Assembly (NCBI GenBank): GCA_963921275.4
Contig: OZ001293.3
Coordinates: 4,544,001-4,608,000, forward strand
DNA: 64,000 bases
Direction: 5' to 3'
DNA from: an uncultured Hormoscilla sp.
GTDB lineage: Bacteria; Cyanobacteriota; Cyanobacteriia; Cyanobacteriales; Desertifilaceae
Position 1 is the stretch's first letter. Each line of letters begins with the position of its first letter. Positions 19,055 to 58,500 of this stretch are shown piece after piece. The position numbers were made by a program, and so were the translations under genes. Under the pieces are notes generated by a model that was not told where the DNA came from, ran no database searches, and was given only the letters and a program-made list of their open reading frames with translations.

Positions 19055-19208
19055 ATTAGGGGTCTCCCTGGGAATCGCTTCCCAACCCTCCCGTTCGGAA
19101 CCGGACTTGCGACTTTCACCGCATCCGGCTACTGGGTAGTAGGCCCTTGTCATTGGTAGGATTACTGGGGATTACTCCCGTTGTCCCTTATCTCATACAA
19201 TTTGGTGC
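19055..19208 (-). ncRNA. Group II intron 3' fragment (pre-DV motif, DV, DVI)
   Basis: Reverse complement reads AGCCGGATGCGGTGAAAGTCGCAAGTCCGGTTCCG; closely similar to the 3' end of the intron at 36555. Confidence 0.85.
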
Positions 19209-19357
19209 CCATCATCCCGTCCGAAGTGCAACGCCAACTAATTATAGCGTTTGTCAGATAGATGCGATCCGCTCTGCGATCTATCTGAATACGGGTGTGG
19301 TCAAAACCAGTTGGTAAAGAAAAGGTAAAATTATGACGATTTCACTGGTTGATAAAC

Positions 19358-20870
19358 GGTTCCCGCCCGGATTTGTATTATAAATAATTACAGGTAACAC
19401 TAATTTTTTGTATTACATGCACTACCAATATAATACGACGAAAAGGCGGGAGCCTCCCACTTTGGCAATGAGTATAAATACTCGTGATTTCTGTCCTATA
19501 CATTTGTGCAAATTTCCTTCCGTTGGGAGATGGCGGCGCTGAGTCCTTGCAGGGTAAGGCTTTGCTCTCATCGACCAGTTGCACAACTCCCGCAGCGGCA
19601 AGCTAAGCGAGAAAAAAAGTTATTCTGGTAATATGGAAAAAATATCCACGGTAGAGCAGGCTACATGACCCCAGAAGAAAATCAAAAACTTAAATACCAT
19701 CTCAAAGAATTATCAAAACTCCTCTATGCAGACACAAGAGCATCTTCAAGACTTTGAAAGCAGAGAAAATGGTAGTCAGAAGCATTTACTTAATACAGTT
19801 GGACCAGAAATAGGAATTTTTTTTTGCTGATGGTGAGCCGGAGAAACCGGGCCGCAAGAGGCAAGTCCCGGACCATGTGAGTGGCGAGATTACAAAGCGG
19901 TCAGCCTACATGGGGAGGTGTGTGGAGCTTACTTTCAGGATAATGTTGCCCTCGTGGAGTGGGTTAAGCAACAGCCCTTCACGGCTTTGGGAGATGGTCA
20001 CTCTGGGCATTTGGAACATTATTGCCCAATTGCTGCTAGCTCATGGCAAACGTGAAGTTCTTGATTGGTATCATTTGGTAGAGAATATCTATAAAATTGG
20101 CGGTTCCAAGAAGCGTTTGAGGCAAATAAAATCATCTCTGTGGCGAGGCTTTATTGATGAAGCCTTAGAGTTGTTAGCTACTTGTAAAGGACCGCAAGTA
20201 CAGAACTTGCGCACTTATCTAACTAAACATCAATCTAGGATTGTCAACTACGACATTTATTAATCTTTGGGAATTCCGATTGGTTCTGGAGAGGTTGAGT
20301 CTACGGTCAAACGCATTGCCTCTCGTCTCAAGCTCTCTGGGGCACAATGGCGAAGGGAAGTCAGTTAACCAAATGCTTCGCTTACGCTGTGCTTATCTTA
20401 ATGGCGTACCCTAAGTACAATTACTTAGGGTAAAACTGGGATGCTCCAAAAAGGCTCCCGCCCGGATTTGTATTACAAATAATTACAAGTAACACAAAAT
20501 TTTAGGATTACGTGCGCTACAATGTAATCGGTCAGAACGGCTTCCGCCCGAATTTGAATTACAAAAATTATATGTAGTATATTTTAGGATTACGTGCGCT
20601 ACAATGTAATCGGTCAGAACGGCTCCCGCCCGGATTTGCATTACAAATAATTACAGGTAACACATATTTTAGGATTACGTGCGCTACAATGTAATCGGTC
20701 AGAAAGGCTCCCGCCCGGATTTGTATTATAAATAATTACAGGTAATACGAAGTTTTAGGATTACGTGCGCTACGATGTAATCGGTCAGAAAAGCTCCCGC
20801 CCGGATTTGTATTATAAATAATTACAGGTAATACGAAGTTTTAGTATTACGTGCGCTACGATGTAATCGA
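19358..20870. repeat. ~85-bp tandem repeat: one unit at 19358 and five units at 20453-20870, separated by an IS
   Basis: GGCTCCCGCCCGGATTTGTATTACAAATAATTAC...GGATTACGTGCGCTACAATGTAATCGGTCAGAA. Confidence 0.9.
19448..20448 (+). mobile_element. Degenerate ISKra4-family element
   Basis: Inverted ends GGAGCCTCCCACTTT / AAACTGGGATGCTCC; AAAAGGC on both flanks; REVLDWYHLVEN, IGSGEVES. Confidence 0.8.
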
Positions 20871-23198: not shown

Positions 23199-25493
23199 GG
23201 GTACATCTCAGTTAGGCGATGAGTAATTATACTTAGTGCTTGTATCCCTCAAAACGGTACATAATTTAGGCACTGTTGACCACCCTTGACCCATGAACTC
23301 CCAAAAGCAGGCTGAACTCCAGCAACATCTTGACGCGATTGCCGCGATTCTCTACCAGGAAGCCGACCCCACTGAACTCACCACCCTTGAAGGCATTGAG
23401 AAAAACGTTCGTGCGCTTGCCCAAGAACACGTCTGGCCTCAACTAGGAATTTTTTTATCAACACGGCGACTTCCCGCCGCACCGGAAAACAGCGCACCCT
23501 GACCAGTATCCTGGGCAAACTAACCCTCACCACTGCTCAAGCCCAACAACTGCAAGTTAAACCGGGAACTCGTTGGAGTCCGTATGTGGAAAAATGTTGT
23601 TGGGTCGTCAGTGCCAATGCCTCTTACCAGAGAGCCGATTTTTCGGGCCGTCCGCGGACCGTAAAAGATCTCGCGATGCTGACTGGGGTGAGCATCTCCC
23701 ACAGTACGCTCCAACGCTTTGTTCAACGAGAGGACTGGTCTGAGGTAGTGCGATTCGTTCCGGCATAAGCCAGTAGGTGAAAGTCGGGTCTGGCTCTATC
23801 AGCCAGATAACTCTGGTTATCATGGGGGTTAAATTCCCCTTCCCCAGGTACGGGGGTCGAGGGTACTACCGGTCGGAGGTGCTGCGGAGTCACATCACCG
23901 TGGTGTGGAGCGAGGACTTAAATGTAGGATAACTGGCAGCCTAAGCCGGTGACGCCGCTAGGAAAGATGTTAATGGTTAGAACAAGCGAACCTATGTAAA
24001 CCTCGTTAACCAGAACCAGCGGAAGAAGGCTTATGCGCTTGCCCAAAAAGGGAAATGGTAGTTAGTATTAGCTCTTGCCTCTGGCTAATAACGTACTCAA
24101 AGAACTCTCGGGGTATAGTAGGAACCTAAAAGCATCGCGAAATGATACCAGGGAACGGAGTAACCTCTCGTGAGCTGTCCCCATTTGGACAAGTTAGATG
24201 TAAAGCGCAAGCCACGAAGAGGAAGGATGTCCTAAGAAGCCAACGCCCGGGGTAATGCTTGTGGATATGCAGACGTAGGACGGATATGGTAAGACACCCT
24301 TGGGAAAAGTAACCTTAATGTCACAGAACTAGGAAGAAATTCCAAAAGTACGAATCTTGGATTCAAATCTTAGCCAGGTAAAGTTCAGAGCCCCTACGAA
24401 AAGCGGAAAGCAGAATGGGGAAGATGTTAGTAAAGAGCGGCGAGTATGGTTTGCTGAACTATCCTCCGCGAACCTTCCGGAGCTAAGTACTTAAACGGTC
24501 CAATAGGATTGACCATAAGGGGTAAAATTTCAAAGGGTAAGGGACAACGGGGGTAACCCCCAGTAATCCTACTGATGACAGCAGCTTACCAACCAGTAGC
24601 CGTGTGCGGTAAAAGTCGCTCTTCAGGTTTCGCTCTTGGAGGGTTGGTACGTGAGTACCAGCTCGACCCCGACCAAGATAGCTGAACCGATTCAGGAGCT
24701 CAGCTTGGATGGCGGCATGATTCGCCTTCGTACCGATTTTTCGGGCCGTCCGCGGACCGTGGAGGGTCAACCTGGTGAGTGGCGAGAATACAAAGCCTTA
24801 AATGTCCATGAGCAAGGCAGTGTGGCTTTCTTCAAGGATAATCAAGGGCTGCTTGAGTGGGTGAATGCCCAGCCCCTCGGGGCGCAGTTCACCGGTCTCG
24901 GAGATGGTCATGATGGGGTGTGGAACATTTTCAGTGGTATCGGGACACCAGAACAACGTATCGAAGTGCTCGATTGGTATCACCTAATGGAAAATGCCAA
25001 TAAGGTGCAAGGGACACCGGCTCAATCCGATTTTTCGGGCCGTCCGCGGACCGTGCAGATCCGATTTTTCGGGCCGTCCGCGGACCGTGCACTCCTGTGG
25101 CGAGGGGAGACCCAGAGGGCGATTAGTTATCTGCGCCAACAGCAATGTCGGGGAGCCACAGGGTTGATCAACTACTTGAAGCACCATCAGACGCGCATCA
25201 TTGACTACCAGACTAGCCCTCCTGGCGTCGGGCCGCTGCGCGAACGGGCAGGCAGCTCGGCACTCGATTGGCTCTGGTCGGGTTGAGTCCCTGGTGAAAC
25301 AAATTGGGTTAAGGGTGAAATTACCGGGGGCACAATGGCGAGCCGAGAATGTGCCGATTTTTCGGGCCGTCCGCAGACCGTAGGTGTTGAAGCATCGCTG
25401 TGCCTACCTGAATGGCGCATTAGTTGCCTAATCAGACTCAGTAAATCCACTTGTGCTGAGTAAATATACTCATCGCCTAACTGAGATGCACCC
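23199..25493 (+). mobile_element. ISKra4-family element carrying a group II intron and several short repeat insertions
   Basis: Inverted ends GGGTACATCTCAGTTAGGCGATGAGTA / TACTCATCGCCTAACTGAGATGCACCC; 8-bp target duplication AACTACTT; LGDGHDG, EVLDWYHL, IGSGRVES. Confidence 0.92.
23748..24674 (+). ncRNA. ORF-less group II intron (E), sense orientation within the ISKra4 transposase
   Basis: 5' GTGCGATTCGTT; DV-like AGCCGTGTGCGGTAAAAGTCGC (3' arm degenerate); removal restores EDWSEV-KIAEPIQE. Confidence 0.9.
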
Positions 25494-32809: not shown

Positions 32810-33631
32810 ATGACTGTCTCAACTCACCTACCTATTCAATCGGACCCCCCGCTGCTACCTTGGCAAACTTTACCGACCATGTACGATTTACCTAGCGATA
32901 ACCCGGAGGATCCTGGTTTGCCTGACGAATTTCACTTTTTCCAACCCCTGCTGCTTTATCTCACTTTTTTACCAACTACCTATAGTCTGGAACTAACTTA
33001 CAGTGCTTGTGACCTCAATCTCTACTATGATGTAAATCATCTCCAATGGTATAAACGTCCCGATTGGTTTGGCGTCGTGGGAGTGCCTCGACTCTATGAG
33101 GGTCGCGATATGCGTTTAAGTTACGCGATCTGGCAAGAAAAAGTCAGTCCGATCGTGGTTGTGGAATTATTGTCGGCAGGAACAGAAGATGGAGATTTGG
33201 GCAGGACTGTAAGCGAGTCGGGAAAACCTCCGACAAAATGGGTAGTATACGAGCAAATATTGCACATTCCCTACTATTTTGTCTTCAGTCGCTATACTTC
33301 AGAAGTACAAGCTTTCCATCTGGCTAACGATCGTTATGAACCAATGCCAATGACTGAGGGGCGCTGGTCGGTCCCAGAGCTGGGATTGAGTTTGGGTTTG
33401 TGGCAAGGTGAATTTCAAAAAGTTAATCGCCTCTGGTTGCGGTGGATGACAGAGGAGGGAGAATTAATTCCGGTTCCCAGTGAAGTAGCATCCGCTGCTG
33501 AGACACGAGCCTCAGAGGCTGAGACACGCGCCTCTGAGGCTGAAAAAGATGCCGCTGCTGCTAAACTAAAGGCAGAAAAATTGGCGCAACGATTGCACGA
33601 GTTAGGATTCGATCCTGATGAGATTGATTAG
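32810..33631 (+). CDS. Uma2 family (DUF820) endonuclease-like protein
   Basis: LPTMYDLPSDNPEDPGLPDEFH, RPDWFGVVGV, VVVELLS, coiled-coil tail. Confidence 0.9.
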   Translation: MTVSTHLPIQSDPPLLPWQTLPTMYDLPSDNPEDPGLPDEFHFFQPLLLYLTFLPTTYSLELTYSACDLNLYYDVNHLQWYKRPDWFGVVGVPRLYEGRDMRLSYAIWQEKVSPIVVVELLSAGTEDGDLGRTVSESGKPPTKWVVYEQILHIPYYFVFSRYTSEVQAFHLANDRYEPMPMTEGRWSVPELGLSLGLWQGEFQKVNRLWLRWMTEEGELIPVPSEVASAAETRASEAETRASEAEKDAAAAKLKAEKLAQRLHELGFDPDEID

Positions 33632-33735
33632 AATTTAAAGTATTGTGCATATCCGGAGCGTTCTTTAGACAAAAAAATGTAGGGACAATTCATGAATTGC
33701 CCCTACATTTAGGACATTAGCAGGAAGAAATACTT

Positions 33736-34427
33736 ATGACTATCTCAACTCATTTACCTCCTCAATCGGACCCTCCGGCGGTGTCTCCTGGGAGATGCAG
33801 AAGTTGTGGGAGTGTCTCGACTCTATAAGGGTCGCGATCGGCGTTTAAGTTATGTGAACTGGCAAGAGAGACTCCGTCCCATTGTGGTTGTGTAATTATC
33901 ATCTCCAGGGAGAGAGGATGAAGATTTGGACCCGACTGTAAGGGAGTATAGTCAACCTCCAACAAAATGGGTAGTATACGAGCAAATATTGCGTGTTACC
34001 TACTACTTTGTCTTCAGTCGTTATACTTCAGAATTACAAGCTTTCCATCGGGTTGGCGGTCATTTTGAACCAATAGCAAGTACTGATGGGCTTCGGCATC
34101 CCCGAGGAGTTCGATGTTTCCCGGGAGCGCTAAGCGCACTACCCAGGAAACATCGTAACCGCACTACCCCGGGGACACCGATGGTGGATACCAACCTTGG
34201 GATTGAGTTTGGGTTTGTGGCAAGGTGATTATCAAGATGTGAATCGTCTCTGGTTAAGGTGGATGACAGAGGAGGGAGAATTAATTCCGGTTCCCAGTGA
34301 AGTAGTATCCGCAGCAGAGACACGAGCTGCTGAGGCTGAAAAAGAAGCTGCTGCTGCTAAACTAAGGGCAGAAAAGTTGGCGCAGCTATTGCAAGAGTTG
34401 GGAGTTAATCCTGGGTCGATTGATTAG
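33736..34427 (+). pseudogene. Uma2 paralog with deletion, frameshifts and nested hairpin insertion
   Basis: PPTKWVVYEQIL and LSLGLWQG...RLWLRW fragments. Confidence 0.85.
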
Positions 34428-34601
34428 ACTCCTGATCGGGTGCATATTCCCAGCGTTCTTGAGACGAAAAAGAACATAACAGGGTGCTTTTTTTTCATGT
34501 CTGTGTAGAAGGGAAGCATTCTGGCAGTAACTATAGAGAAAATAGTTTCTCTCTGCTATGCCAAAATGCTTCCCCCGCCGCCAAAGTAAGATGCAAAAAA
34601 T

Positions 34602-35060
34602 ATGACTGTTTCAACTCATCTACCTACTCAAGCGAAACTACCGCTTCCAGCTTGGCAAACTTTGCCAACTATGTACGATCTACCTAGCGAAAATCAGGAC
34701 GAACAGCCAGATGATTTTCACTTTCTCCAAACCCTGCTGCTCTATCTCACTTTTATCCCAACTACTTGTAGTGGTAAATTGGCTTACAGTGCTTGCAACC
34801 TCAATCTCTACTATGACTTAAATCATCCCGAATGGTATAAACGTCCCGATTGGTTTGCTGCATCTCTTGGGTAGTGCGAGTAGCGCTCCCAAGAGATGCA
34901 GCAGTTGTGGAGTGCATCGACTCTATCAGGGTCGCGATTTGCGTTTAAGTTATTTGATCTGGCAAGAGATAGTCAGGCGTTGTTGTAGAATTATTGTCTC
35001 CAGGCACAGAAGATGAAGATTTGGGCCGGACTACGATCGAGTCGGGTAAACCTCCAGGGC
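34602..35060 (+). pseudogene. Third Uma2 paralog, interrupted by a hairpin repeat and truncated
   Basis: MTVSTHLP...RPDWF then hairpin 34857-34902 introducing a stop. Confidence 0.85.
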
Positions 35061-35747
35061 AAACGCATCTTATTTTTGAAACGCTTACAGCCTACATTCA
35101 GCACGATAAAATGTATTGCGGGTAGTGGGTCACAAGTAGTGATTGCCTGAAACCCAGACTGTGGCCCCGGCTGGCCCCGGCAGGGACACAGGACCGCAGT
35201 CAAATCACTACGCTGACGCTCAGAATGACCACTACCTCCCCGCCAAATCTGTCTCCTACAGGCTAACGCTGCTGACGCTGCTGACGCTACAAGAGGCAGA
35301 GCCTCAAAGGTAGCATTCCGTGGCTCAGCCACGGAACCAATAAAGCCACGGAACCCTGGGGGGGCAACATGCAAGCCCAAACCCTTACTGGGTAACGATT
35401 TGGGCCCATAATCTCCAAAAATATATCTGCTGTTTTGGGCCGACAGACGACGTAGTTATAAGGGTTTGAGCTTCATGAAAATGAAAGAATGGTACTGATG
35501 CGACTGTATCAAGTCTAAGCCCATAGCCCTCAAACCCTTATCTAGTAAGGGTTTGAGGGCTCATGTCGCCCCCTCAGCACGGAACCAGTAACCTCCTGCT
35601 GCTTTTCTGTTTACCCTGTGTCCTGCAGAAACCGGGTCGCAGCCGAGGCCACAGGATAGGAGGGTGGGCGGTGCCCACCCTACAGTAATTACATTTAAAA
35701 ACTTACCAAAAAGTTTTTGAAATCATCAGTGATTGCCCGAATGAACC

Positions 35748-37401
35748 AGTCGGGGTCGAGCTAACTCTCACGAGCTAACCCTCCCATTCGGAACCGGACA
35801 TGCGACTTTCATCGCATCCGGCTACTGGGTAGATAGCCCTTTGTCATGGGTAGAATTACTCGGGATTACTCCCTTTGTTCCTCTCTTTATGTAATTTGGC
35901 CCCTTATGGTTAGTCTCAGACTAGATAAATGCCTAACTCCGGAAGGTTCGCGGGGGTTAACAGGACAAACCCATATAAACCGCTCTTTACTAACGTTGCC
36001 CTCGTTAATTAGGGACTTTACAAGTTTTACCCGGTTAGGTCTTTAGTCCAATATTAACTACCTAGGATTTCTCCTGGTCTAGAACATTTAAGGCTACTTT
36101 CACCCAAAGATTCTATCTATCACCAACCCACGTCAGCATATCCATAGGAGTTACCCCAGGCTTTAGCTTCTTGGGCTATCTCTCCCCTCATGGCTTGCGC
36201 TTTACATCTAACTTGTCCATATGAGGACAGCTCATGAGAGGTTACTTCGTTCCCTAATATCATTTCACGATACCTTTAGGCTCCTACTATACCTCAGTAA
36301 CTTTTCGAGTACGATGTTAGTCACGGGCTACGACTAACACTAGCTACTTTCCCTTTTGGGCCAGCGTAATAGCCTTATTCCGCTGGTTTAATATCATGAG
36401 GCTTACATAGATTTGTTTGTTCTAGCCTTGGGTATCTAACAAGCGCGGAGTCACTGGCTTAGGCTGCCAGCTATCCTACATTTAAATCCTCGCTTAGCAC
36501 CACGGCGATGTTACTCCGCAGCACCTCACGCGGTCACCCCCGTACTTGAGAGGAATTAGGGGTCGAGCTGGGAATCGCTCCCCAACCCTCCCGTTCGGAA
36601 CCGTGCATGCGACTTTCACCGCACACGGCTACTGGGTAGTTGGTCCTTGTCACTGGTAGGTAACTTCGGGATTACTCCCGTTGTCCCTCGTCTCATGAGA
36701 TTTGGCCCCTTGAGCTTATCCATCTCTGACAGGTTTCCCCCGAGCTGTAGGCATATTTAGGGCTACTTTTACCCAAGACTTCCAACTATCACCGACCGAC
36801 GTCTGCATATCCCAGGCGTTACTCCGGGCATTTGCTTCTTAGGCCATCTTTCCCACTCGCGGCTTGCGCTTCACATCTGACTGGTCCTTTAGGACAGCAC
36901 ACGAAGGGTTACTTCGTTCCCTGGTATCATTTCACGATGCCTTTAGGCCCCTACTTTTCCCCGGCAGTTATTTGGGTACAATGTTAGCCAATTCCCTAAT
37001 TAACACTAACTGCATTAACTTTTGTTCCAGCGCATTAAGCCTTATTTCGCTGGTTGGGTTTAACGAGGTTTACATAGGTTCGCTTGTTCTAGCCATGGAC
37101 ATCTTTCCTAGCGGAGTCACCGGCTTGGGCTGCCAGCTATCCTACATTTGAGTCCTCGCTTAGCACCACGACGATGTTATTTCGCAGCACCTCACGCGGT
37201 TACCCCTGTACCTGGGGAGGGGGAATTAAACCCCCATGATTACCAGAGTTACTAGTTTCCTAGGCCAGCGTTCCGTATATGACTACGTTAGGCTGGAACT
37301 CATCGCACGGGAATTTAACCCTCATGATAATCAGAGTTATCTGGCTAATGGAACCAGACCCGACTTTCACCATTACTGGCTTATGTCAGAACGAATCGCA
37401 C
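35748..37401 (-). ncRNA. ORF-less group II intron A1 (outer intron of twintron 1)
   Basis: DV (rc) AGCCGGATGCGATGAAAGTCGCATGTCCGGTTC; 5' GTGCGATTCGTT at 37401. Confidence 0.9.
36555..37308 (-). ncRNA. ORF-less group II intron B1 nested in domain I of A1
   Basis: 5' GTGCGATGAGTT, DV/DVI, ends CTCGACCCCTAAT; removal restores the domain I sequence seen in introns D and E. Confidence 0.9.
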
Positions 37402-38348
37402 AACCCGATTATTATCCTAAGATATATACAAACAGGAGTAGCGGGTCACAAGTAGTGATTTTAGCGCCTGAAACCCAGGACCGCAGTCAAATCACTATCG
37501 GAATGACCACTACCTTGGAATCCATGTTGCGGATATATAGCAGTCGGGGTCGAGCTAACTCTCACGAGCTAACCCTCCCATTCGGAACCGGACATGCGAC
37601 TTTCATCGCATCCGGCTACTGGGTAGATAGCCCTTTGTCATGGGTAGAATTACTCGGGATTACTCCCTTTGTTCCTCTCTTTATGTAATTTGGCCCCTTA
37701 TGGTTAGTCTCAGACTAGATAAATGCCTAACTCCGGAAGGTTCGCGGGGGTTAACAGGACAAACCCATATAAACCGCTCTTTACTAACGTTGCCCTCGTT
37801 AATTAGGGACTTTACAAGTTTTACCCGGTTAGGTCTTTAGTCCAATATTAACTACCTAGGATTTCTCCTGGTTTAGAACATTTAAGGCTACTTTCACCCA
37901 AAGATTCTATCTATCACCAACCCACGTCAGCATATCCATAGGAGTTACCCCAGGCTTTAGCTTCTTGGGCTATCTCTCCCCTCATGGCTTGCGCTTTACA
38001 TCTAACTTGTCCATATGAGGACAGCTCATGAGAGGTTACTTCGTTCCCTAATATCATTTCACGATACCTTTAGGCTCCTACTGTACCCCAGTAACTTTTC
38101 GAGTACGATGTTAGTCACGGGCTACGACTAACACTAGCTACTTTCCCTTTTGGGCCAGCGTAATAGCCTTATTCCGCTGGTTTAATATCATGAGGCTTAC
38201 ATAGATTTGTTTGTTCTAGCCTTGGGTATCTAACAAGCGCGGAGTCACCGGCTTAGGCTGCCAGCTATCCTACATTTAAATCCTCGCTTAGCACCACGGC
38301 GATGTTACTCCGCAGCACCTCACGCGGTCACCCCCGTACTTGAGGGGA

Positions 38349-40358
38349 AGTCGGGGTCGAGCTGTCCCTCGCGGGACAACCCTCCCTTTCGGAACCGTGC
38401 ATGCGACTTTCACCGCACACGGCTACTGGGTACTAGGCCCCTTTCACGGGTAGGATTACTAGGGATTACTCCCATTGTCCCTTACTACTTGCACGTCCGC
38501 CCCTTTCCTGGTTGGTGAGTGGAGCTGCCGGATAACCTTTAGTATCACCATTTAACACTCCGTTTTACCAGTTAAACATTCCTCAATCCTCAACTCGCTT
38601 TCGCTAACGCTGTAAATGGGCTTATGACATTTTAGAGCTACTTGTAGCAATAGTTTACTAGTATCACCGACCCGCGTCTGCGTATCCATAGGCATTACCG
38701 GCGTCTTCCGCATGCTCTTGTCCTGAAGGACTTTGGCGTCTTCCGCACACTCTTGTCCTGAAGGACTCGGTGTGCTCCAGACACCAAGGCATGCTCCAGA
38801 CACCGCCTAGGCATTAGCTTCTCGGGCCATCTCTCCCCTCATGGGCATGCGCTATGCGCTGCGCGCACGCTACGCGGACGCACATCTGACTTGTCCAAAT
38901 GAGGACAGCACCACGGGGGTTACTTCGTTCCTCTCGCTGAGGTTACTTCGTTCCCTGGTATCATTTCACGATGCCTTTAGGCCCCTACTTTTCCCCGGCA
39001 GTTATTTGGGTACAATGTTAGCCAATTCCCTAATTAACCTAAGTTGCGACCTATTAAAAAAAATATGAATTACCCACTTAGACTTTACAGATATTTGGGA
39101 TATTTCGTAGCTTTTGATACAAAATTATATTTTTTTTGTGCTAGACGGCGGGTTGGCTGTTTATAGGTTATAATGTACTAAAATAATAGTTAATTGCTAG
39201 GGGATGTAGATGATGGAAGATATGATTACAACAATTTTTGTTCTTTGTGATGAGCTACTAAAAGCGTTAAATATAAAAGAAGATCCACAAGTAAAAATGA
39301 ACAATGCCGAAGTGATGACAGTCGGATTAGTTGCTGCATATTTTTTCGGAGGACACCACGATCGCTCTTGTCAATTTATGGTCGAACACAAGTATATAAA
39401 AAATCTGTTAAGTAAAAGTAGGTTCAATCGTCGATTACACAATATTGACGAACCAATTTGGATGTTTTTCTTCCAAGTTATAGCTCAAACATTTAAAGAG
39501 CTCAATCCGTCAAGAATATATTCTTGATAGTTTCCCGGTGCCAGTATGTGATAATATTAGGATTGATAGATGCCAAATTTATAACAAGGAAGAATATCGA
39601 GGGTATATTGCCAGTAAAAAACGTTATTTTTATGGATTAAGAGTTCATATGTTGGTAAACAAAAATGGAAAGCCAATAGAATTTTATCTAGATCCTGGTA
39701 GTTATAATGATGTTAAAGTTTTGCAATCTTTTGGCTTTGACTTACCATCAAATTCAATAGTTTATGGAGATAAAGCTTATAATGATTATCAATTAGAGGA
39801 TTTACTAAAAGAGTCGTCAAGTATAATGTTAAAACCTTTGCGAAAAAAGAACTCAAAAAGAAAAGAATATTCTTGTTTTGAATATATACAAAAAGTAACA
39901 AGAAAACAAGTTGAAACCTGTTTTAGTCGAATCACCAATTTGTTTCCCAAGTCAATTCATGCTGTTACATCTAAGGGATTAGAGTTGAAAATAATTCTCT
40001 TTATCATAGCTTTTTGTATCCAATTTTTATAGGTCGCAACTTGAGTTAATTAACACTAACTGCATTAACTTTTGTTCCAGCGCATTAAGCCTTATTTCGC
40101 TGGTTGGGTTTAACGAGGTTTACATAGGTTCGCTTGTTCTAGCCATGGACATCTTTCCTAGCAGAGTCACCGGCTTGGGCTGCCAGTTATCCTACATTTG
40201 AGTCCTCGCTTGGCACCACGATGATGTTACTTCGCAGCACCTCACGCGGTTACCCCTGTACCTGGGGAGGGGGAATTAAACCCCCATGATTACCAGAGTT
40301 ACTAGTTTCCTAGGCCAGCGTTCCGTATATGACTACGTTAGGCTGGAACTCATCGCAC
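38349..40358 (-). ncRNA. Chimeric ORF-less group II intron (B-type 5' part, different 3' part) nested in A2
   Basis: 38941-40358 minus the IS matches B1; 38349-38931 is a different sequence type with its own DV/DVI. Confidence 0.85.
39037..40046 (+). mobile_element. IS982-family element; transposase 39210-40032 split by a frameshift
   Basis: Inverted ends ACCTAAGTTGCGACCTAT / ATAGGTCGCAACTTGAGT; TAATTA target duplication; DSFPVPVCDNIRI, YFYGLRVH, YGDKAY, RKQVETCFS. Confidence 0.92.
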
Positions 40359-41286
40359 GGGAATTTAACCCTCATGATAATCAGAGTTATCTGGCTAATG
40401 GAACCAGACCCGACTTTCACCATTACTGGCTTATGTCAGAACGAATCGCACAGTTCTCATATTAGTGTGATATGCTGTAGGATATTGCGTCGGGAGGGTA
40501 ACTCACCCCTCGCATAAGTTACTCGCCTTACTCCCCCCCCCTCGCAATGACAAGTCGGCGATTATTCTGTACCACATTAATTTGAGAAACGCTATACTTT
40601 CTGCAACAATAGTACGGATTGAGCGCTCGGGACATGGAAGATAGTTTGTATGACATCGTATCGATGCGTCAGTTTTCGGGATTGGGTATGGATGAGGTTC
40701 CTGACGAGACCAAGATATTGAGATTCCGGCATTGGCTGGAGGAACACAAATAGCAAAACTCGGTGGCGAAGCGGCAATCCTGAATTCTACCGAATACGAT
40801 CGCATCCCGGTTGACGACCCAAGAAGCCCCTAAGTCCGCCATACCCGATCGGAGCGGTAAAATAACCGAGATTTCCATTACATGACCATTAACAGGGACA
40901 ACTAACATTACTCGATCAATTTCGATACCAAGTATCAAAAGCAAATGAAAATCACCCTCATCATTATCCTATCCATACTGATATTTGTTGCCATTGTTTA
41001 TCTATGGGGCAGAACCTTACCCGCACACCAAGACCTACGGGTAGAAAGAACAATTAGCATCAATGCCCGCATATTAGATTGAGAAGAGCCGTCTTACGCA
41101 ACAATTTTGGTTGTTTGTAATGATCCTTTACAGAAATCCCAGATCCAGAGTCCGCTATCCATTTATCAGGACAGCCGTAGTGCCGGTCATAGAAAGAACC
41201 CAGGAAACCAGAGGGCTAAACAGCGAGAAACCGGGTTTCTGGCAGAAACCCGGTTTCTCAGTCCGTCGATGTTTGCCAGTGGTAGC

Positions 41287-42846
41287 TTAAAAGTTAGGCT
41301 CGACAATATAAGGAGAAGAAATTCTCGGAGCCTTGTTGGTGGCCACTAAAGCCTGGTAAATGAAGGCTGAAACTTCAGCTCTAGTGCTATCCAGCATGGG
41401 GTTAAGTATATTCTTCTGAGGATAATTGACCACCATCCACCTTTGGGTAGCAGTAGCCACTTCATCAGTAGCATAGCTGGGAATCTGGGCCCGATCGCTA
41501 TAAGCAAAAAGTAAATTAGTATTGCCCTCAGTTAAGCCTAAACCATTCACCAAAGAGACGATCGCCTGAACGCGAGTCAAATTATGCTCCGGACGAAAAG
41601 AACCATCAGGAAAACCAGAGATAAATCCCATGCGCGAGGCTTGCCCCATGCGCGAGGCTTGCCCGATCGCCGATGCGGCCCAAAAACGAGGGTCAACATC
41701 CCAAAAGTCAATCTCCGATCGCTTAAAAGGCAATGGGAAAGTCTTAGCAATCAAAGCGGCATACTGGGCGCGAGTGATGCTTTGGTCTGGTCGAAAAGTG
41801 CGATCGGGGAAACCACTAATAAAGCCCTTACTAACCATAGCAGCAATAAAGACTTCCGCCCAATGTCGGGCAATATCTGTCAATCCAGTTTCGCTGCGTG
41901 GTGCCGGAGTGGGAGTGGGAGTAGGGTTGGGAGTGGGAGTGGGAGTGGGGCTGGGAGTAGGGGCGATTGGCAGATCTGTGGCAACAAAATCGATCGAGCC
42001 TTTCACGCGGGTAGGATTAATCTGATTTCCCACCGAGACCAGCATCTTCTTAGTAGCATTATGCAAATCATATTGACCATTACCGCGCAGAATATTGCCA
42101 CCATTATCTTGAGGACTGCCCAAATCCGGTATCGCATTACCAATCACAACCAGACCATCCTCCGAGTTATTCTCAATTGTATTATTCCGCAGGACTGGAC
42201 GTGCTTGATTAGAAAGTACCATGCCAGAGCGATTGGCAAAAATCAGATTATCAACCACCACAGGCGCAGCATCATCGCTAATGGCAATCCCGTAACCAGT
42301 ATCTTGACAGACATTACCACGTATCTCGCCCTTCACATTTTTCGCGATCGATATCCCGTTAGCGTTATTTCTAATAAACAGATTACCCTCAATCACGGGA
42401 TGGGCCGTACCAGTAGCAAACAGCCCCTCTCGGGCCGAATTCGCTAAAGTATTGTTAGCCACGTAAGGGGCCGTAGATTCAATCCAGACCGCCGTCCCCC
42501 GTCCGGCCCGGTTAGTCACAGTGACTCCCCGCAATTGGGCATCATCGGACAGCTCTATGGTAATATTTTGACGGGCAAAGCTGCGCGAGAAATAACTGCC
42601 ACTGCCTTCAATTACAATCCCCTTGCCTTTGTCCGATTCATTCCCTAAAACCGTCACCCCAGCTGGCACGCTCAGGGGAAAAATCTCGCCACTGGCTTGA
42701 TTATAGACCCCAGGTGCCAGTTGAATCCTAGTTTCGCCCCTCGATTGCTGGAGTGCCCTGGTCAGGGTCTTAAACGGAGAATATTGATTACCGGCACCTC
42801 TGTCATTGCCAGTATCGGGATTAACATAAAGCATAGATTTGACCAT
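41287..42846 (-). CDS. DUF1565 beta-helix protein with PT linker and S-layer homology domains
   Basis: LYVNPDTGND...PFKTLTRAL, PTPTP linker, GFPDRTFRPDQSITRAQ. Confidence 0.9.
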   Translation of the reverse strand: MVKSMLYVNPDTGNDRGAGNQYSPFKTLTRALQQSRGETRIQLAPGVYNQASGEIFPLSVPAGVTVLGNESDKGKGIVIEGSGSYFSRSFARQNITIELSDDAQLRGVTVTNRAGRGTAVWIESTAPYVANNTLANSAREGLFATGTAHPVIEGNLFIRNNANGISIAKNVKGEIRGNVCQDTGYGIAISDDAAPVVVDNLIFANRSGMVLSNQARPVLRNNTIENNSEDGLVVIGNAIPDLGSPQDNGGNILRGNGQYDLHNATKKMLVSVGNQINPTRVKGSIDFVATDLPIAPTPSPTPTPTPNPTPTPTPAPRSETGLTDIARHWAEVFIAAMVSKGFISGFPDRTFRPDQSITRAQYAALIAKTFPLPFKRSEIDFWDVDPRFWAASAIGQASRMGQASRMGFISGFPDGSFRPEHNLTRVQAIVSLVNGLGLTEGNTNLLFAYSDRAQIPSYATDEVATATQRWMVVNYPQKNILNPMLDSTRAEVSAFIYQALVATNKAPRISSPYIVEPNF

Positions 42847-42970
42847 GATTTTGTCGCGACCGGAGGCTGCCACCCCTGGGAAATATTAACATATTCCGTT
42901 ACGGTAGGCTGATTAACTCTTCGGGGAAATTAAAATATAAAAGCATTGCTGCCGCTAGTAAGGGTGAAAA

Positions 42971-43890: not shown

Positions 43891-44532
43891 GTGCTCGATC
43901 CCCTCTTTTGGCTAGGACTATCTATCTTACTGGTTGCCGTCAGCCTCACCGCTGTGCTGGTGGCGGCCCTGCCCGCCTTACAGGAGTTGGCCAGAGCTGC
44001 TCGCAGTGCCGAAAAGCTCTTTGACACCCTCAGCCGCGAACTGCCCCCCACCCTAGAGTCCATCCGTCTGACCGGTCTGGAAATCAGCGATCTCACCGAT
44101 GAGGTGAACAAAGGAGTTCAAAGTGCCTCTCAGGTAGTCCAACAAGTCGATGAAAGCATCGATATTGCCAAAAAGCAGGCACAAAAAGTCCAAATTCACT
44201 ACAAAAGCATCTGGGCTGGCCTTAAAGCTGGCTGGAAAACCTTGACAAAAAGTAAAAAATATGCTAAAAAATATCGCCACCCGACCGCTCCTCTGCCTTC
44301 GTCAGCTGGAACTGCCCTAGACTTTGAGCCAGCTTCCGGTCATAAACGCACCGGCGATCGAAAAGGTGCAGAGCGATCGCAAGCGCGGCGAGAGGCTGAC
44401 TATTTGCCCAGTCAATATTTGCCGAAGCCAGAGTCAGACCGACCCTCATCTCAACCGGTGTCTCCTGGGAGCGCTACTCGCACTACCCAGGAGACACCGC
44501 CTGCACCTGTAGATCGGCGGGATGAATCCTGA
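43891..44532 (+). CDS. DUF948 family protein (hairpin repeat in-frame near the C-terminus)
   Basis: DPLFWLGLS...ARSAEKLFDTLSRELPPTLESIRLTGLEISDLT. Confidence 0.85.
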   Translation: MLDPLFWLGLSILLVAVSLTAVLVAALPALQELARAARSAEKLFDTLSRELPPTLESIRLTGLEISDLTDEVNKGVQSASQVVQQVDESIDIAKKQAQKVQIHYKSIWAGLKAGWKTLTKSKKYAKKYRHPTAPLPSSAGTALDFEPASGHKRTGDRKGAERSQARREADYLPSQYLPKPESDRPSSQPVSPGSATRTTQETPPAPVDRRDES

Positions 44533-49236: not shown

Positions 49237-49632
49237 TTCACCTCCTAATCATAACAGACAAACCAACGTTAATCATAGCTTCAATTTCCAACTGTTTAAT
49301 TTCTGATTCCCGGGATATTTTATTTTAACAGACCTGCGGCTGGAAAACTCCTTCCAGGAACAACAATTTCCTGGAATAATTTCTCTTCTAATTCTACATC
49401 TATGCTGCACCACCACAACAGGCCCAATGCCAAAAAGTGAGAAACTGCCAGTCCGATAGAGTTAACCCCTTTTCTTCTTATTCTCAACCCCGATCGCGTA
49501 GCGTGCGCGCAGCGCATTCGATGGAAATTACCTGAATTTTTGGTTGTTGCTCTAACAACTCACCCGCGGAGGCGCGATCCGGGAGGTTCTCCCGATACCG
49601 CCTTCGGCGCGCTCTTCGCTGTTAATACTGCT

Positions 49633-51642
49633 TTAACCTGGGCAAACACACTCGGCCAGTCTCCCAGTTTTGTTTGACGATCGGGGCCGCATCGTGGGAT
49701 ACCAAGGGCTATCCGATCGATCGAGGAACCAGCGCCAGTCAGGAGAAAAAGGTAACAGCACCCAGACAGGTTTTCCTAAAGCACCTGCTAGATGGGCAAC
49801 TGATGTATCTACAAAAATTACTAAGTCTAATTGTGAGATAACAGCAGCAGAAGAGGCGAAGTCATTCAACAGCTCTCTTAAATCCTGTATAGGTGCCCCA
49901 TCCAGGATATCTGTATGTTCCTTTTGCAAACTATAAAGAAAAATCCCTAATATCTGCGACAGTTCCAGAAACAGGGAAACCGGACAAGACCGCTTGCTAG
50001 CTGTAGGACTTTTAGCATTAACAGCCCACACAATGCCGACTTTTACTTCTCCTTCCGTTCGTAGCAAGCCACTGTACTTGACGGTGTCCTTCTCTTCAGC
50101 GTACAAATAGGGTATTCGAGCCGGAATAGTTTCTATAGTCGTACCCAGGATGCGGGGGAGACTCATCAGGGGGACTTGCACGTCAAATGCTGGTAATGGT
50201 TCGCCCATGACTACCACCTCCTGAACGCCAGAGACCGTAGTAAACAAGCGCCTGAGATCTGGATATGTTTCCACAATTACTTTACCAGCACCCAGCTGGG
50301 TTACTAAGGGCGCGTAACGGATGAATTGGATAGCGTCCCCGTGTCCCTGTTCTGTATGTAAAAGAATAGTTTTTCCTGCCAGTGGCGAACCGTCCCAAAG
50401 AGGTTTTCCCCCATCGCGCAGCGTGGCGCAGCCATAGCGTTGTTCCGGGGTCTGTCCCCGGAACAACCATGATGAATGGCGCCAGCGCCATTCATATTCT
50501 ACAAATCCTTGGCTCAAGTCCTGCAATAATAACAAGCACCTTCCCAGATTTAAGTGAGCCCTTACTGCATCTGGGTTTAAGGCAATAACATGACGGTAAT
50601 AGCCGATCGCCTCTTGTAATTTCAGTTTTTTTCGCAGGGCAAAACCCAGGTTGCTGTAGACTTCGGCAAGGTCTGGTTTCAGGGCGATCGCCTTTTGGTG
50701 GCATGCGATCGCCTCTGCAAACTTACGCTGCTCTTGCCAAGCGGTCCCCATCCTATTGTAAGCTTCTGGATAATCTGGTTTAATTGCCAGAGCCTGACGA
50801 TATTGTCCGATCGCCTCTGCTATTTTACCCTGCTTTTGCAGTATCACCCCCAGGTCGCAATTTGCGTCCAGATAGTTCGGCTTTAAGGCGATCGCCTGTT
50901 CATACTGCCTCGCCGCCTCTGCTAACTTTTCACATCTTTGATAGCATTTCCCCAACTGATTGTAAAATTTCGCTTCTGGTTTAATGGCAATGGCTTTTTC
51001 ATAATAGGCGATAGCCTCTTCTCTGCGGTCCTGCTCTTCCATAATTTTAGCCGCATTATAGTAAGCATCCGCACATTTGGGGTCAATGCCCCGAGCCCCC
51101 TTTTCGTAGCAGGCGATCTCTTGTTGGTAATGAGCGAGCGCCTCTTGATAACGCTTTCCTTGGCGACGCATCGCCGCCAATTTTTCAGGGGTCGCGCCAC
51201 TCGGGATCAGCGATCCCACTTGCTGGTCAGTCTCCTTCGCGTAGCGTGCGCGCAGCTCGATCGCCTCTAATCTTTTTCCCTGTTTTTCCAGGGCCAAAAC
51301 CAGGTTATCATAAGCATTAAGATAATCAGGCTTCACTGCGATCGCCTGTTTGTAGGCAGCGATCGCCTGTTCGATTTTTCCCTGTTCCCAGAAGCAAGCC
51401 CCCAGATTATTATAAGTCTCAGGCCAATCTGGCTTTATAGATATCACCTGTTGAAAATAGCCGATCGCCCGATCGTATTCCCTCGTCTGATAAGCAATAA
51501 TTCCTAGCATCTGCATAGCCTCTACCTTGTGAGGCTGCTGTTCTAGCATCGCCAAATAAACAGCCCTCGCTTCATTCAGACGTCCGGCTTGGTAGTGACT
51601 CAAAGCCTCTCTTAACCAATCGTTCCCTGCTTGCTGTACCAT
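49633..51642 (-). CDS. TPR-repeat glycosyltransferase (GT9-like C-terminus), frameshifted extreme C-terminus
   Basis: Many TPRs; EQGHGDAIQFIRY, DTSVAHLAGALGKP, DWRW...SPWYPTMR. Confidence 0.85.
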   Translation of the reverse strand: MVQQAGNDWLREALSHYQAGRLNEARAVYLAMLEQQPHKVEAMQMLGIIAYQTREYDRAIGYFQQVISIKPDWPETYNNLGACFWEQGKIEQAIAAYKQAIAVKPDYLNAYDNLVLALEKQGKRLEAIELRARYAKETDQQVGSLIPSGATPEKLAAMRRQGKRYQEALAHYQQEIACYEKGARGIDPKCADAYYNAAKIMEEQDRREEAIAYYEKAIAIKPEAKFYNQLGKCYQRCEKLAEAARQYEQAIALKPNYLDANCDLGVILQKQGKIAEAIGQYRQALAIKPDYPEAYNRMGTAWQEQRKFAEAIACHQKAIALKPDLAEVYSNLGFALRKKLKLQEAIGYYRHVIALNPDAVRAHLNLGRCLLLLQDLSQGFVEYEWRWRHSSWLFRGQTPEQRYGCATLRDGGKPLWDGSPLAGKTILLHTEQGHGDAIQFIRYAPLVTQLGAGKVIVETYPDLRRLFTTVSGVQEVVVMGEPLPAFDVQVPLMSLPRILGTTIETIPARIPYLYAEEKDTVKYSGLLRTEGEVKVGIVWAVNAKSPTASKRSCPVSLFLELSQILGIFLYSLQKEHTDILDGAPIQDLRELLNDFASSAAVISQLDLVIFVDTSVAHLAGALGKPVWVLLPFSPDWRWFLDRSDSPWYPTMRPRSSNKTGRLAECVCPG

Positions 51643-55035: not shown

Positions 55036-55588
55036 AAAAAACAGCGCAGCCTGCTTTAGTCAAAAATGAGCCTAAGCTAGCAAGGTTAAGACAGAACCAG
55101 AGAAAGATATATTACCATGACCGGGTGCTACCTCAGAATACTCCAGCTAACAATTTCAGGAAACGGTAACACTATTAGTAGTAACGACCAACACTGGCTG
55201 TTCTTTGTCAGAAAGCAGTACAAATTTCGATAACCGACCTTTAGCAACGGGGGCCCAGAAAGGCAATAGCGGCGGGGCGGCAGGCATAAGCGGTGCCCTG
55301 TTTGTCTTTAAATGGACGGTCAGAATGACCAACTTTCCGGATAGCATAAAAAAGTAATTTTATGTATCAGAGACGAAAAAACATAAAGATCCGTAAAGTA
55401 TAAGTAGGTAATCCATATTTCTTAAGATTTTTTAAATAGGTCGCAACTTGAGTTATGATAGACCTAGGTGCGACTCGTTCCGGCGTAAGTTAGAAATATG
55501 ACGATAGTCGGGCTAGTATTACACCAGCATTTCTACAGAAAAATACAAGAGAAACCAAAAAATAAAACATAATACCAATGCCAACACC

Positions 55589-58500
55589 ATGGTAGTAGTG
55601 GATGCCTCCCTAGAAAACTACCAGCAGCTTATAGACGGCATCCGGCCTGGGGCCAAATCTTTTTTCTTAGACCTTCGGTCCGATGGCATCGAACAGATCG
55701 GCGAACTTCTCCGACAGCATCAAGAAACAGAGGTTCTGCACCTACTCTCCCATGGCAGCCCTGGCTGTCTGTATCTGGGAAACTCCCAACTGAGTTTAGA
55801 TACTCTAGGAGATTACGCTTCTACCCTGCAGAAGTGGAAAGTAAAACAACTCCTACTCTACGGCTGTAACGTCGCCGCCGGAGATGCAGGAGAGGAGTTG
55901 ATGACTAAGCTACAGGCCCTGACCGGGGCATCCCTCGCCGCCTCTACTACCCGGACAGGGGCAGCAGCCCGGGGCGGAAATTGGAGGTTGGAGTGGCGAA
56001 CTCCGGGGATGAAAACTCCCTTAGCATTGTCCGCAGAAGCTCAGATGGCCTATGGGGGCATATTGATCTCCCAGCAGGAGTATCAGGCCTTAAGGGCTCT
56101 CTATCAAAGCACCAATGGGGCTTCTTGGAGTAACAATACAGGCTGGCAAGACTGGAATTTCAACAGCCCAACTCCCCCCAATGATTCTGTTGTTAATGGT
56201 TGGCATGGAGTGACGGTAGCTAGCTCCCGGGTGATTAACCTCGAGCTGAACTTCAACCAACTGACTGGCAGCATCCCGACGGAGTTAGGGAATCTTTCCA
56301 ATTTGGAGTCTCTCTTGCTGTCCTTCAACCAACTGACTGGCAGCATCCCGACGGAGTTAGGGAATCTTTCCAATTTGCAGTTTCTCCAGCTGTTTTCCAA
56401 CCAACTGACTGGCAGCATCCCGACGGAGTTAGGGAATCTTTCCAATTTGGAGAATCTCCGGCTGTACTCCAACCAACTGACTGGCAGCATCCCGACGGAG
56501 TTAGGGAATCTTTCCAATTTGCAGTTTCTCCAGCTGTTTTCCAACCAACTGACTGGCAGCATCCCGACGGAGTTAGGGAATCTTTCCAATTTGGTATCTC
56601 TCGTGCTGTTCTCCAACCAACTGACTGGCAGCATCCCGACGGAGTTAGGGAATCTTTCCAATTTGGTATCTCTCGTGCTGTTCTCCAACCAACTGACTGG
56701 CAGCATCCCGACGGAGTTAGGGAATCTTTCCAATTTTATTTGGCTCCGGCTGGACTCCAACGAACTGACTGGCAGCATCCCGACGGAGTTAGGGAATCTT
56801 TCCAATTTGCGATCTCTCCAGCTGTTCTTTAACCAACTGACTGGCAGCATTTCCCAAGAGGTTCTAGATTTGAGTGCTGAGAAGCGATTGGAAAACCCCC
56901 CTTATGTTTTAACCGAGATTCCCTACGTCCAACTCTTGCTAGGTAATAACCTCAACATAAACATTAGCGCAGATTTCCGCGACATCAATAACAACATTAG
57001 TAGCTACGGCGCTAATGGTTTGCCAAACGGTTTAACCATTAACTCCACTACTGGGGTGATCAGCGGCACTCCTACTACTGAGGGCAGTTTTACCGTGACG
57101 GTAACAGCAACGGATAGGGCGGGAGGCCGGGGAGAAGATGAATTTAATATTACGGTATCGATTCCTCTCAATGCAAGTGATTACGACGCCCTTCGGGCTC
57201 TCTATAACAGTACTTCTGGGAATAATTGGAGGAAGAGGACAGGCTGGGATGTCAGCAGCCCAACTCCTCCCTCTGCTAGTGTTGTTAATAGCTGGCATGG
57301 GGTGACGGTAGTGGGCGATCGGGTGACGAAACTCTCCCTGTTCAACAACTCCCTGAGCGGTACGCTCCCCTCGGAGTTAGGCTCCCTCAGCAATTTGCAA
57401 GTCCTCTCCCTGAACTTCAGCTCCCTGAGCGGTACGCTCCCCTCGGAGTTAGGCTCCCTCAGCAATTTGCAAGAGCTCTGGCTGGACAGAAACTCCCTGA
57501 GCGGTACGCTCCCCTCTGAGTTAGGCTCCCTCAGCAATTTGCGAAAGCTCTACCTGCACAGAAACTCCCTGAGCGGTACGCTCCCCTCTGAGTTAGGCTC
57601 CCTCAGCAATTTGCAAGAGCTCTCCCTGCACAGAAACTCCCTGAGCGGTACGCTCCCCTCAACCTTAGGCTCCCTCAGCAATTTGCAAGAGCTCTCCCTG
57701 CACAGAAACTCCCTGAGCGGTACGCTCCCCTCAACCTTAGGCTCCCTCAGCAATTTGCAAAACCTCTACCTGGACAGAAACTCCCTGAGCGGTACGCTCC
57801 CCTCTGAGTTAGGCTCCCTCAGCAATTTGCAAGACCTCTACCTGTTCAACAACTCCCTGAGCGGTACGCTCCCCTCGGAGTTAGGCTCTTTCAGCAATTT
57901 GCAAGAGCTCTACCTGAACAACAACGACTTTCGCGGTACGATCCCCGACAGTATCAACGCTTTGTCAGCATCCAAACGATTGGAAAACCCTCCCTATGTG
58001 GAAATTCAAATTCCCGACGTCAATGCCTTAAGTGGTGAGAAATTCAACTTCAAGGTGGGCGGGAACTTCGGCGACCTCAACAACAACATTAGTAGCTACG
58101 GCGCTAATGGTTTGCCAGACGGTTTAACCATTAACTCCACTACTGGGGTGATCAGCGGCATTCCTACTATTCCTACTATTGATGGCAGTTTTACCGTGAC
58201 GGTAACAGCAACGGATGGGGTGGGATACCGGGGAGAGGATGAATTTAATATTACAGTATCGCGTCCCACTAGCTTCAACCTTTCTGATAGTTTCGCTCTC
58301 AATGGCAACTTTACCAATTTGTACATCGGTGACTTTAATGGGGACAATCATGATGATATCCTCCGTCAAGAAAAGGGCAGTTGGTCCAACGAGGATGCCT
58401 ATCGGACTGCTGAAGTCCTCTTATCCCAAGGTAACGGCAACTTTACCCGCACCACCCTTCCTGATAGTAGATCTCTCAATGGCAACTTTATCAATTTGTA

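Follow-up and report, generated by a model that had tools for sequence, protein, structure and literature searches.

How do two nearly identical group II introns come to stand side by side, each of them split by a further intron, with no reverse transcriptase (RT) detected in any of them? The question is raised by a 64 kb stretch of the genome of an uncultured Hormoscilla sp. (assembly GCA_963921275.4, contig OZ001293.3, positions 4,544,001 to 4,608,000 of the forward strand). The whole of this stretch is called here the window, and all positions follow its numbering. The outer introns are named A1 and A2, and the introns nested in them B1 and B2; all four lie on the minus strand. The reading which we favour, with a probability of about 0.8, is that A was inserted twice, that introns without an open reading frame (ORF) then reached both copies by retrohoming, forming two twintrons, and that one of these inner introns, B2, is a chimera which was later hit by an insertion sequence (IS) of the IS982 family.

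Layout and ribozyme structure of the nested introns

In the direction of the minus strand, A2 comes first (40451-37543). Its 5' segment (nt 1-93, 40359..40451) starts with GTGCGATTCG at 40451, is identical to the 5' segment of A1, and ends with one half of a hairpin of domain I (DI), GAGGGTTAAATTCCC (40373-40359). The inner intron B2 (40358-38350) begins there, with GTGCGATGAG at 40358. Its 5' segment (40047..40358) runs through DI up to the hairpin of exon-binding site 1 (EBS1), is 98-100% identical to B1, and includes EBS2 (AACCC, within 40113-40102). It is followed by the IS982-family insertion sequence, which has 1008 bp, lies on the plus strand (39039..40046) and shows a transposase, terminal inverted repeats and a target duplication. 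The 3' segment of B2 (38350..39038) contains EBS1 (GGGAAT, 39030-39025), the end of DI, a chimera joint and domains II to VI (DII-DVI) of another lineage. B2 without the IS has 993 nt. The 3' segment of A2 (37543..38349) holds the remaining part of DI and DII-DVI, with the EBS1 loop at 38127-38115 and EBS2 at 38189-38179. A2 and A1 are separated by a non-coding spacer of 141 nt (37402..37542), whose 3' end carries the intron-binding sites IBS2 (TAATA) and IBS1 (CGGGTT) of A1. A1 itself (37401-35749) consists of a 5' segment (nt 1-93, 37309..37401), the whole ORF-less inner intron B1, of 754 nt (36555..37308), and a 3' segment (35749..36554). In B1 the EBS1 loop is found at 37000-36988 and EBS2 within 37063-37052; the corresponding positions in A1 are 36333-36321 and 36395-36385.

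Once the inserts are removed by coordinates, A1 and A2 have 899 nt each, and they differ in 5 of these 899 positions (99.4% identity). In both, the first 93 nt are followed by an inner intron that runs in the direction of its host, and both B1 and B2 begin directly after ...GGTTAAATTCCC. The canonical 5' end GTGCGA is found at 37401, 37308, 40451 and 40358. One extra T follows the B2 insert in A2, relative to A1. A search (nhmmer) with a family profile, which was built with the window's own intron copies included, gives split matches. In the A2 unit, profile positions 1-93 correspond to 40451-40359, 1-325 to 40358-40044, 314-823 to 39039-38350 and 93-823 to 38349-37543. In the A1 unit, positions 1-93 correspond to 37401-37309, 1-820 to 37308-36559 and 90-823 to 36554-35749. 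Split matches and boundaries together describe a twintron: One complete intron is enclosed by another of the same strand, and the boundaries of the two are intact. Such a nested pair would presumably be spliced sequentially, the inner intron leaving first. The A and B sub-families are about 74% identical, and the introns of the family are short (about 750-930 nt) and ORF-less.

The original prediction, made from the sequence alone, had described two adjacent ORF-less twintrons with near-identical outer introns, nested three levels deep. The two twintrons are confirmed: All four introns have a match to Rfam RF00029, the outer introns show just the 5/899 differences, and no match to RVT_1 or GIIM is found. 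The inner introns also lie, as had been proposed, at the same DI site of A1 and A2. Nesting of an intron in an intron stands, but at the third level we find a DNA transposon, the IS982, so the introns themselves are two deep. The coordinates were correct overall, except for some 3' ends. The majority of family members finish with ...CGACCCCGAC, which places the 3' ends of A1, A2 and B2 at 35749, 37543 and 38350, one base inside those first given.

The matches to RF00029, the Rfam family for DV-DVI, are all above the gathering threshold: A1 reaches 46.4 bits (35749-35826), B1 45.2 (36568-36633), A2 46.4 (37543-37620) and B2 47.9 (38350-38427). The window contains six such matches in total, the other two at 19068-19133 and 60216-60292. 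The DV/DVI hallmark of group II introns is present, in the form CUCGA-CCCCGAC or CCCCUAAU, with the end 7 or 8 nt past the unpaired A. The intron ends agree with GUGYG...AY, having GTGCGA starts and 3' ends ...GAC or ...AAT, and the 5' end GUGCGAUUC agrees with the type named IIB2 in PMC4649490.

A permissive Rfam search of 34500-41500 yielded DV-type matches and one chance microRNA match only; the group-II-D1D4 models, which had been proposed for a check, recognized nothing at E<=1. DI-DIV were therefore tested through covariation in an alignment of the family. This alignment includes 12 full-length members which did not have to be joined, three from the window and nine from Hormoscilla loci. 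The loci were obtained by a DV-pattern scan of species-representative genomes, which gave at least 15 of them. Those listed all come from three Hormoscilla metagenome-assembled genomes (MAGs), different from the window's own genome. The RNAalifold consensus of the 12 members has six domains and 182 pairs. Standard pairs occupy 96.4% of the cells, against 85.5% in shuffles (n=500) and 36.7-47.5% with slid partners. Changes on both sides are seen in 86 pairs, a value which none of the 500 shuffles reaches (46.4+/-3.8) and which falls to 16-24 with slid partners; the slid control somewhat favours the structure, since the consensus is derived from the same alignment.

The individual introns agree well with this consensus, as counted in the cases of A and B2 on sequences joined in a script, with the inserts removed. 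A1 keeps 97 of the 100 DI pairs and all the pairs of DII-DVI. B1 keeps 90/100 pairs in DI, 19/20 in DII, 13/15 in DIII, 30/33 in DIV, 14/14 in DV and 13/13 in DVI, and the corresponding values for B2 are 91/100, 18/20, 15/15, 31/33, 14/14 and 13/13. The four elements are genuine group II introns, and the six-domain fold is supported.

None of the ORFs of 35748-40451 matches RVT_1 or GIIM. A tblastn search with the intron RT of a relative gave E=0.47 as the best value in the window, and no RT remnants were detected inside the introns. With a DIV of about 100-220 nt and neither a domain match nor a tblastn match to a RT, these introns are ORF-less. No ORF in any frame runs across the joined exons, so the introns sit in non-coding DNA. 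They are found downstream of a SLH/DUF1565 gene (41287-42873), on the same strand. Upstream of A2, a scan for promoters and terminators did not exceed the counts obtained with shuffles. As splicing restores no host gene, the arrangement may be regarded as selfish DNA.

Two short repeats are also found in the window. The first, with internal inverted symmetry (GGTAGTGGTCA...TGACCC[G/A]CTAC), has one copy in the A2-A1 spacer (37438-37515), one about 500 nt downstream of A1 (35122-35237) and one in a Hormoscilla locus (L003:6401-6438). The second is a dispersed hairpin repeat of about 35 nt (GTCYCYNGGGTAGTGCG..TAGCGCTCCCNGGRGAC), found at 15613-15655, 34139-34164, 34856-34903 and 44461-44494. Several of its copies lie inside broken copies of a Uma2-family gene, in 32810-34874.

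Target sites and the composition of B2

If the inner introns arrived by homing, their targeting sequences should fit the site where they are found. EBS1 consists of 6 nt in a DI hairpin loop, and its partner is the final six bases of the exon. EBS2 has 5 nt, lies about 70 nt upstream of EBS1, and binds the exon at positions -13 to -9. Among 17 introns, the EBS1-IBS1 pairing is 6/6 in 12 cases, 5/6 in three, 3/6 in A2 and 2/6 in L004a, a copy from a Hormoscilla locus whose 5' end is also mutated. For 11 distinct specificities, and with EBS columns picked after inspection of the data, the mean of cognate EBS1-IBS1 pairings is 5.45/6 against 2.54/6 for the 110 non-cognate combinations. The values for EBS2-IBS2 are 4.27/5 and 1.99/5, and none of the 110 non-cognate combinations reaches 5/5. 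The separation seen in this control is clear. As for a third site, the base 5' of EBS1 shows no covariation with exon position +1. Candidate EBS3 columns 313 and 378 fit in 14 of 17 introns, with 2 further wobbles. The best column in the EBS3 scan (587) is outside DI and probably reflects a phylogenetic coincidence.

A1 (EBS1 AGCCCG, EBS2 TATTA) fits its own flank, TAATAATCGGGTT, with 6/6 and 5/5. In the same way B1 and B2, which have the same EBS1 (GGGAAT) and EBS2 (AACCC), fit the A sequence GGGTTAAATTCCC immediately before their insertion point with 6/6 and 5/5; when inspected by eye, the pairing covers 7 nt (AATTCCC) plus GGGTT. Such EBS/IBS pairing is the signature of retrohoming, and it points to arrival of the inner introns by reverse splicing.

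The target of B in A is a DI hairpin kept in the whole family, with a 5-bp stem and a 7-nt loop (GAGGG-UUAAAUU-CCC^UC, where ^ is the insertion point). In the consensus it is helix 5, formed by columns 102-106 and 115-119, where the compensatory variants GAAGG/CCTTC and GAGGG/CCCTC are found. B is inserted within the 3' strand of the stem (GAGGG-TTAAATT-CCC^TC). It splits a helix of the ribozyme core of A, so its removal would be needed before A can fold and splice.

B2 had been described as a further intron at the site used by B1. This is correct, but B2 is not a plain copy of B1. The two introns show 5 differences in their first 403 nt, which correspond to DI (99% identity), and are 72% identical in DII-DVI; the switch takes place exactly at the DI/DII boundary. 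At the joint a 13-mer, GAACGAAGTAACC, covering the 3' strand of the DI closing stem and the linker, is present in two copies (38953-38941 and 38930-38918), separated by 10 filler bases. The joint looks like a scar of recombination or template switching. No donor of the 3' part of B2 was found among the window and Hormoscilla-locus sequences compared. Two inserts are private to B2, a 35-nt tandem duplication (38700-38767) and a GC-rich stretch in domain II (~38845-38880). An exact 19-23-nt motif of this GC-rich insert is also present at 49495-49517 and 51238-51256, inside genes for TPR proteins.

The IS982 lies four bases upstream of the EBS1 of B2, within the EBS1 hairpin. It has terminal inverted repeats of 29 nt, 90% complementary, and an 8-bp target duplication, GTTAATTA, at 40047-40054 and 39031-39038, for which B1 provides the uninterrupted site. 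The transposase is coded on the plus strand in two different frames, 39210-39527 and 39538-40032, so this copy may be defective. The second of these ORFs matches NCBIfam NF033520 with 1e-47 and 162.8 bits (cut-off 130, profile 70-242), the first with 6.9e-07 (profile 2-67), and there is a match to Pfam DDE_Tnp_1_3. The element, which had been assigned to IS982 from the start, has therefore the DDE transposase, the inverted repeats and the target-site duplication of this family. As it breaks the EBS1 hairpin of B2, exon recognition should fail, and A2(B2) is expected to be dead for splicing. Another stretch of the window, 55329-55449, upstream of a DUF4347-LRR gene, resembles one end of the IS982 (72% identity in 127 nt), and may be a remnant of it or a miniature inverted-repeat transposable element.

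We can now propose a history. A and B would be non-autonomous retroelements, each copy with its own targeting loops (EBS1 and EBS2) in DI, which would insert by reverse splicing into DNA complementary to these loops. The RT/maturase would be supplied in trans, from elsewhere. In the order of events that we infer, A would have been inserted twice in non-coding DNA, at sites 141 nt apart: A1 in a well-matched site, A2 in a site which fits EBS2 but only half of EBS1. Introns with a B-type DI would then have homed into the DI hairpin of A, giving two twintrons in the same orientation. We favour the view that B1 and an already chimeric B2 homed independently, guided by the same DI, B2 being probably a recombinant between the DI of B and DII-DVI of another lineage. 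The IS982 would have hit B2 later, leaving A2(B2) frozen as a fossil. On the other hand A1(B1), judging by the structural hallmarks, all of which it keeps, may still be able to splice, in the inner-first order.

Other family members and alternative histories

The ORF-less family has seven copies or fragments in the 64-kb window. Besides the four nested introns, we should mention the following. Intron C (60216-61084, minus strand) has 869 nt, is ORF-less and lies antisense within a DUF4347-LRR gene, so it cannot be spliced from that mRNA. It divides the DUF4347 domain between two ORFs (59978-60301 and 61185-62522), and an intact paralogue of the gene is found at 55589-59707. Intron E (23748-24673, plus strand) is a full-length member of 926 nt with a decayed DV (11/14 pairs), undetected by Rfam. 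Its EBS1 and EBS2 still fit its own flank with 6/6 and 5/5. Finally, the 3' end alone (DIV-DVI) is left of another member, at 19059-19210 on the minus strand, next to IS4-like and ISKra4-like transposase fragments (18490-18900 and 19814-20260).

Among the matches listed, relatives of the family are found in three Hormoscilla genomes, with introns 65-92% identical to those of the window and several copies nested. In L003, a sibling (775-2914) harbours in its DIV an ORF-less intron of the same strand (1525-2684), whose EBS1 fits the site by eye with 6/6, including one wobble. L014:1-477 contains a same-strand nest, cut by the contig end, whose inner member stops directly on the 5' side of the DI hairpin that is the target of B. 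In L007:3286-5083, an intron is inserted antisense in the EBS1 loop of another family member. In L010 (4943-5723) and L015 (4943-5724), introns interrupt reading frames of LRR proteins in sense, at a shared site (TGTTGTT..GGCTGG.ATGG.GTG^CACGGTAG) which is read as ...VVNGWHGV^TV. This peptide motif is uninterrupted in the LRR genes of the window. Plasmids in PLSDB gave short DV-level matches only, in 8 records.

As regards possible helpers, the ORF scan of the Hormoscilla loci gave one protein with RVT_1, GIIM and HNH domains (L010:2558-3928) among 66 ORFs. The scan covered 66 of 69 ORFs; the three left out belong to L013, which overlaps L012, and two of them duplicate scanned L012 ORFs. Pieces of RT are also found with tblastn in L002, L004, L009 and L012. 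Helpers therefore exist in the Hormoscilla clade, which does not imply that they serve the ORF-less family. Upstream of the RT-encoding intron of L010, the segment 868-1515 combines a DV with 33 aa left from the C-terminus of the RT, and looks like an ORF-deleted copy of the RT-intron lineage.

Several points weigh against the proposed history. Two of them were given above: The D1D4 models do not recognize these introns, and the EBS columns were picked with the data in view. The flank of A2, TAATATGAGAACT, fits EBS2 with 5/5 and EBS1 with just 3/6, so the A2 insertion was ectopic or its flank was altered later. The B target (GGGTT-N2-ATTCCC), the same or nearly so, is vacant in C (60993-61005), in E (23826-23838) and in B1 and B2 themselves. 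Position +1 after this target is C in these four introns and T in A, and a role of this base in target choice would be a guess. The domain scan covered 71 of the window's 101 stop-to-stop ORFs with a length of 100 aa or more, and gave no RT or maturase. Finally, the RT-encoding introns of the relatives have a RF04357-type DV and a DI of distant similarity (nhmmer E=1e-13 to 7.5e-23), so they are not obviously cognate helpers.

The alternative which survives best is that the whole family is extinct in the source genome, and the twintrons are inert relics without present mobility or splicing. We take it seriously, although we tend to doubt it. It agrees with the lack of any RT/maturase found in the 64-kb window, with the disabling of A2(B2) by the IS982, with the decayed DV of E and the bare 3' fragment at 19059-19210, and with the location of C, antisense in the gene it disrupts, and of the A introns, in non-coding DNA. 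Extinction is harder to reconcile with the 99.4% identity of A1 and A2, and with the conservation of A1, B1 and C, which keep at least 90% of the consensus pairs and an intact DV/DVI. In addition, one related Hormoscilla genome has three 100% identical copies at different loci (L008a, L011a and L015a), and the two copies of L010 and L015 lie in sense inside their LRR-protein reading frames. The opposite view, that this is a recently spreading family, had been part of the original prediction and is not upheld. Its sole support is the identity of A1 and A2, while A2(B2::IS982) is inactivated, the IBS1 of A2 fits 3/6 and the window has no detected RT.

A different possibility concerns the origin of the two nests. 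A single twintron A(B) might have been copied as a unit, either by retrotransposition of the composite RNA, unspliced and targeted through the loops of A, or by DNA duplication, the 3' two-thirds of one inner intron being replaced later by recombination. The outer introns (5/899) and the inner DI (5/403) show a similar divergence, as co-inheritance predicts, the 5' junction is identical in A1 and A2, and composite twintron mobility has been discussed for Thermosynechococcus elongatus (PMC2882425). Nevertheless, the flanks of A1 and A2 share only the IBS2 pentamer, and the replacement tract would have to stop exactly at the last base of the intron. B1 ends with ...CCCCTAAT and B2 with ...CCCCGAC, which is followed in A2 by the extra T. 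Retrohoming of a ready-made chimeric B2 needs fewer steps, and we consider copying as a unit unlikely. A simple segmental duplication of the A unit was also considered and is excluded: A1 and A2 have unrelated flanks, and the spacer shares just the short repeat with 35122-35237.

An assembly artefact is very improbable: Although the region has near-identical repeats of ~0.9 kb and many mobile elements, and the related public records are MAGs, the copies of A differ by 5 substitutions, have different flanks which each fit the EBS2 of A, and contain different inner introns placed precisely at canonical boundaries, and mis-assembly tends to collapse repeats rather than to build ordered nests.

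Independent retrohoming of B1 and B2 is thus the history we prefer. It may be extended to a bolder proposal, which seems to us rather doubtful: The family would be an old RT-less lineage, spanning several species, which has lasted and diversified without any cognate ORF remnant, and in which DI is exchanged at the DI/DII boundary, B is specialised on a core helix of its siblings, and the outer ribozyme depends on the inner one. If this were true, B would be a hyperparasite, dependent on a foreign RT as well as on sibling introns in which to land, and B2 would be an example of a DI targeting module swapped between lineages.

Comparison with known systems

The twintrons of the window may be considered as a further natural case of group II introns acting as non-autonomous retrotransposons and using each other as safe landing sites. 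This process of mutual landing bears on models of intron proliferation and of dependence on trans factors. The mosaic structure of B2 hints at natural recombination of targeting and catalytic modules, and A1(B1), with 1653 nt, is a compact protein-free substrate for tests of ordered twintron splicing. In the literature searched, Hormoscilla is nowhere linked with group II introns, or with introns in general.

A close mobility system is described in T. elongatus, where TeI3/TeI4 introns are mobilised in trans by the intron-encoded proteins (IEPs) of related introns (Mohr, Ghanem & Lambowitz 2010, PMC2882425). According to this report, one sub-family homes to a conserved site in sibling introns, including the ORF-less TeI3h, which gives rise to twintrons. 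Homing into siblings is thus common to both cases, and one of the T. elongatus introns is also interrupted by an IS. The differences with the account given there are several. Homing in T. elongatus is directed to DIV, where the ORF or its remnant begins, and leaves the outer ribozyme core unsplit, whereas a DI helix is the target here. The ORF-less introns of T. elongatus keep ORF remnants and coexist with RT-encoding siblings; in our case the tblastn search showed no RT remnant, and the family is not known to have a cognate RT. Lastly, it is the outer copies that have diverged in T. elongatus, the inner ones being identical, while here the outer introns are nearly identical and the inner ones form a mosaic (PMC2882425).

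A DI twintron has been reported in Trichodesmium erythraeum, Tr.e.I7/I8, where a host intron which starts with GUGCGAUUC, as A does, contains the inner one in its DI (Pfreundt & Hess 2015, PMC4649490). Splicing is described as sequential, with the inner intron removed first (PMC4649490), and this order is the usual logic of twintrons (PMC4424553, PMC4649490). On the other hand, both Trichodesmium introns have IEP ORFs, they total more than 5.4 kb and they lie in a conserved protein-coding gene (PMC4649490); here the introns are ORF-less and the exons non-coding.

Deeper nests are described in Methanosarcina acetivorans, up to five introns deep, with a perpetual homing site and no coding exons (PMC4424553, PMC2882425). 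As in our twintrons, group II introns home repeatedly and site-specifically into other group II introns, and coding exons are absent. This species is an archaeon, however, and its RT-encoding members home into intron ORFs, while the window has two intron levels and no ORFs. In plant mitochondria, 'zombie' twintrons and a self-invading intron are reported, with invasion of paralogous introns and some non-functional nests, in an organellar context (PMC7049729).

In summary, each feature of these twintrons has a precedent in the systems reported, including the insertion of ORF-less introns into ORF-less ones and the DI twintrons (PMC2882425, PMC4649490). Current concepts are unchanged, and the known cases are extended to another cyanobacterial lineage. 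Compared with those accounts, what is new is the combination of two ORF-less partners with a core DI helix as the target, the chimera formed by a swap of DI, and the host lineage itself.

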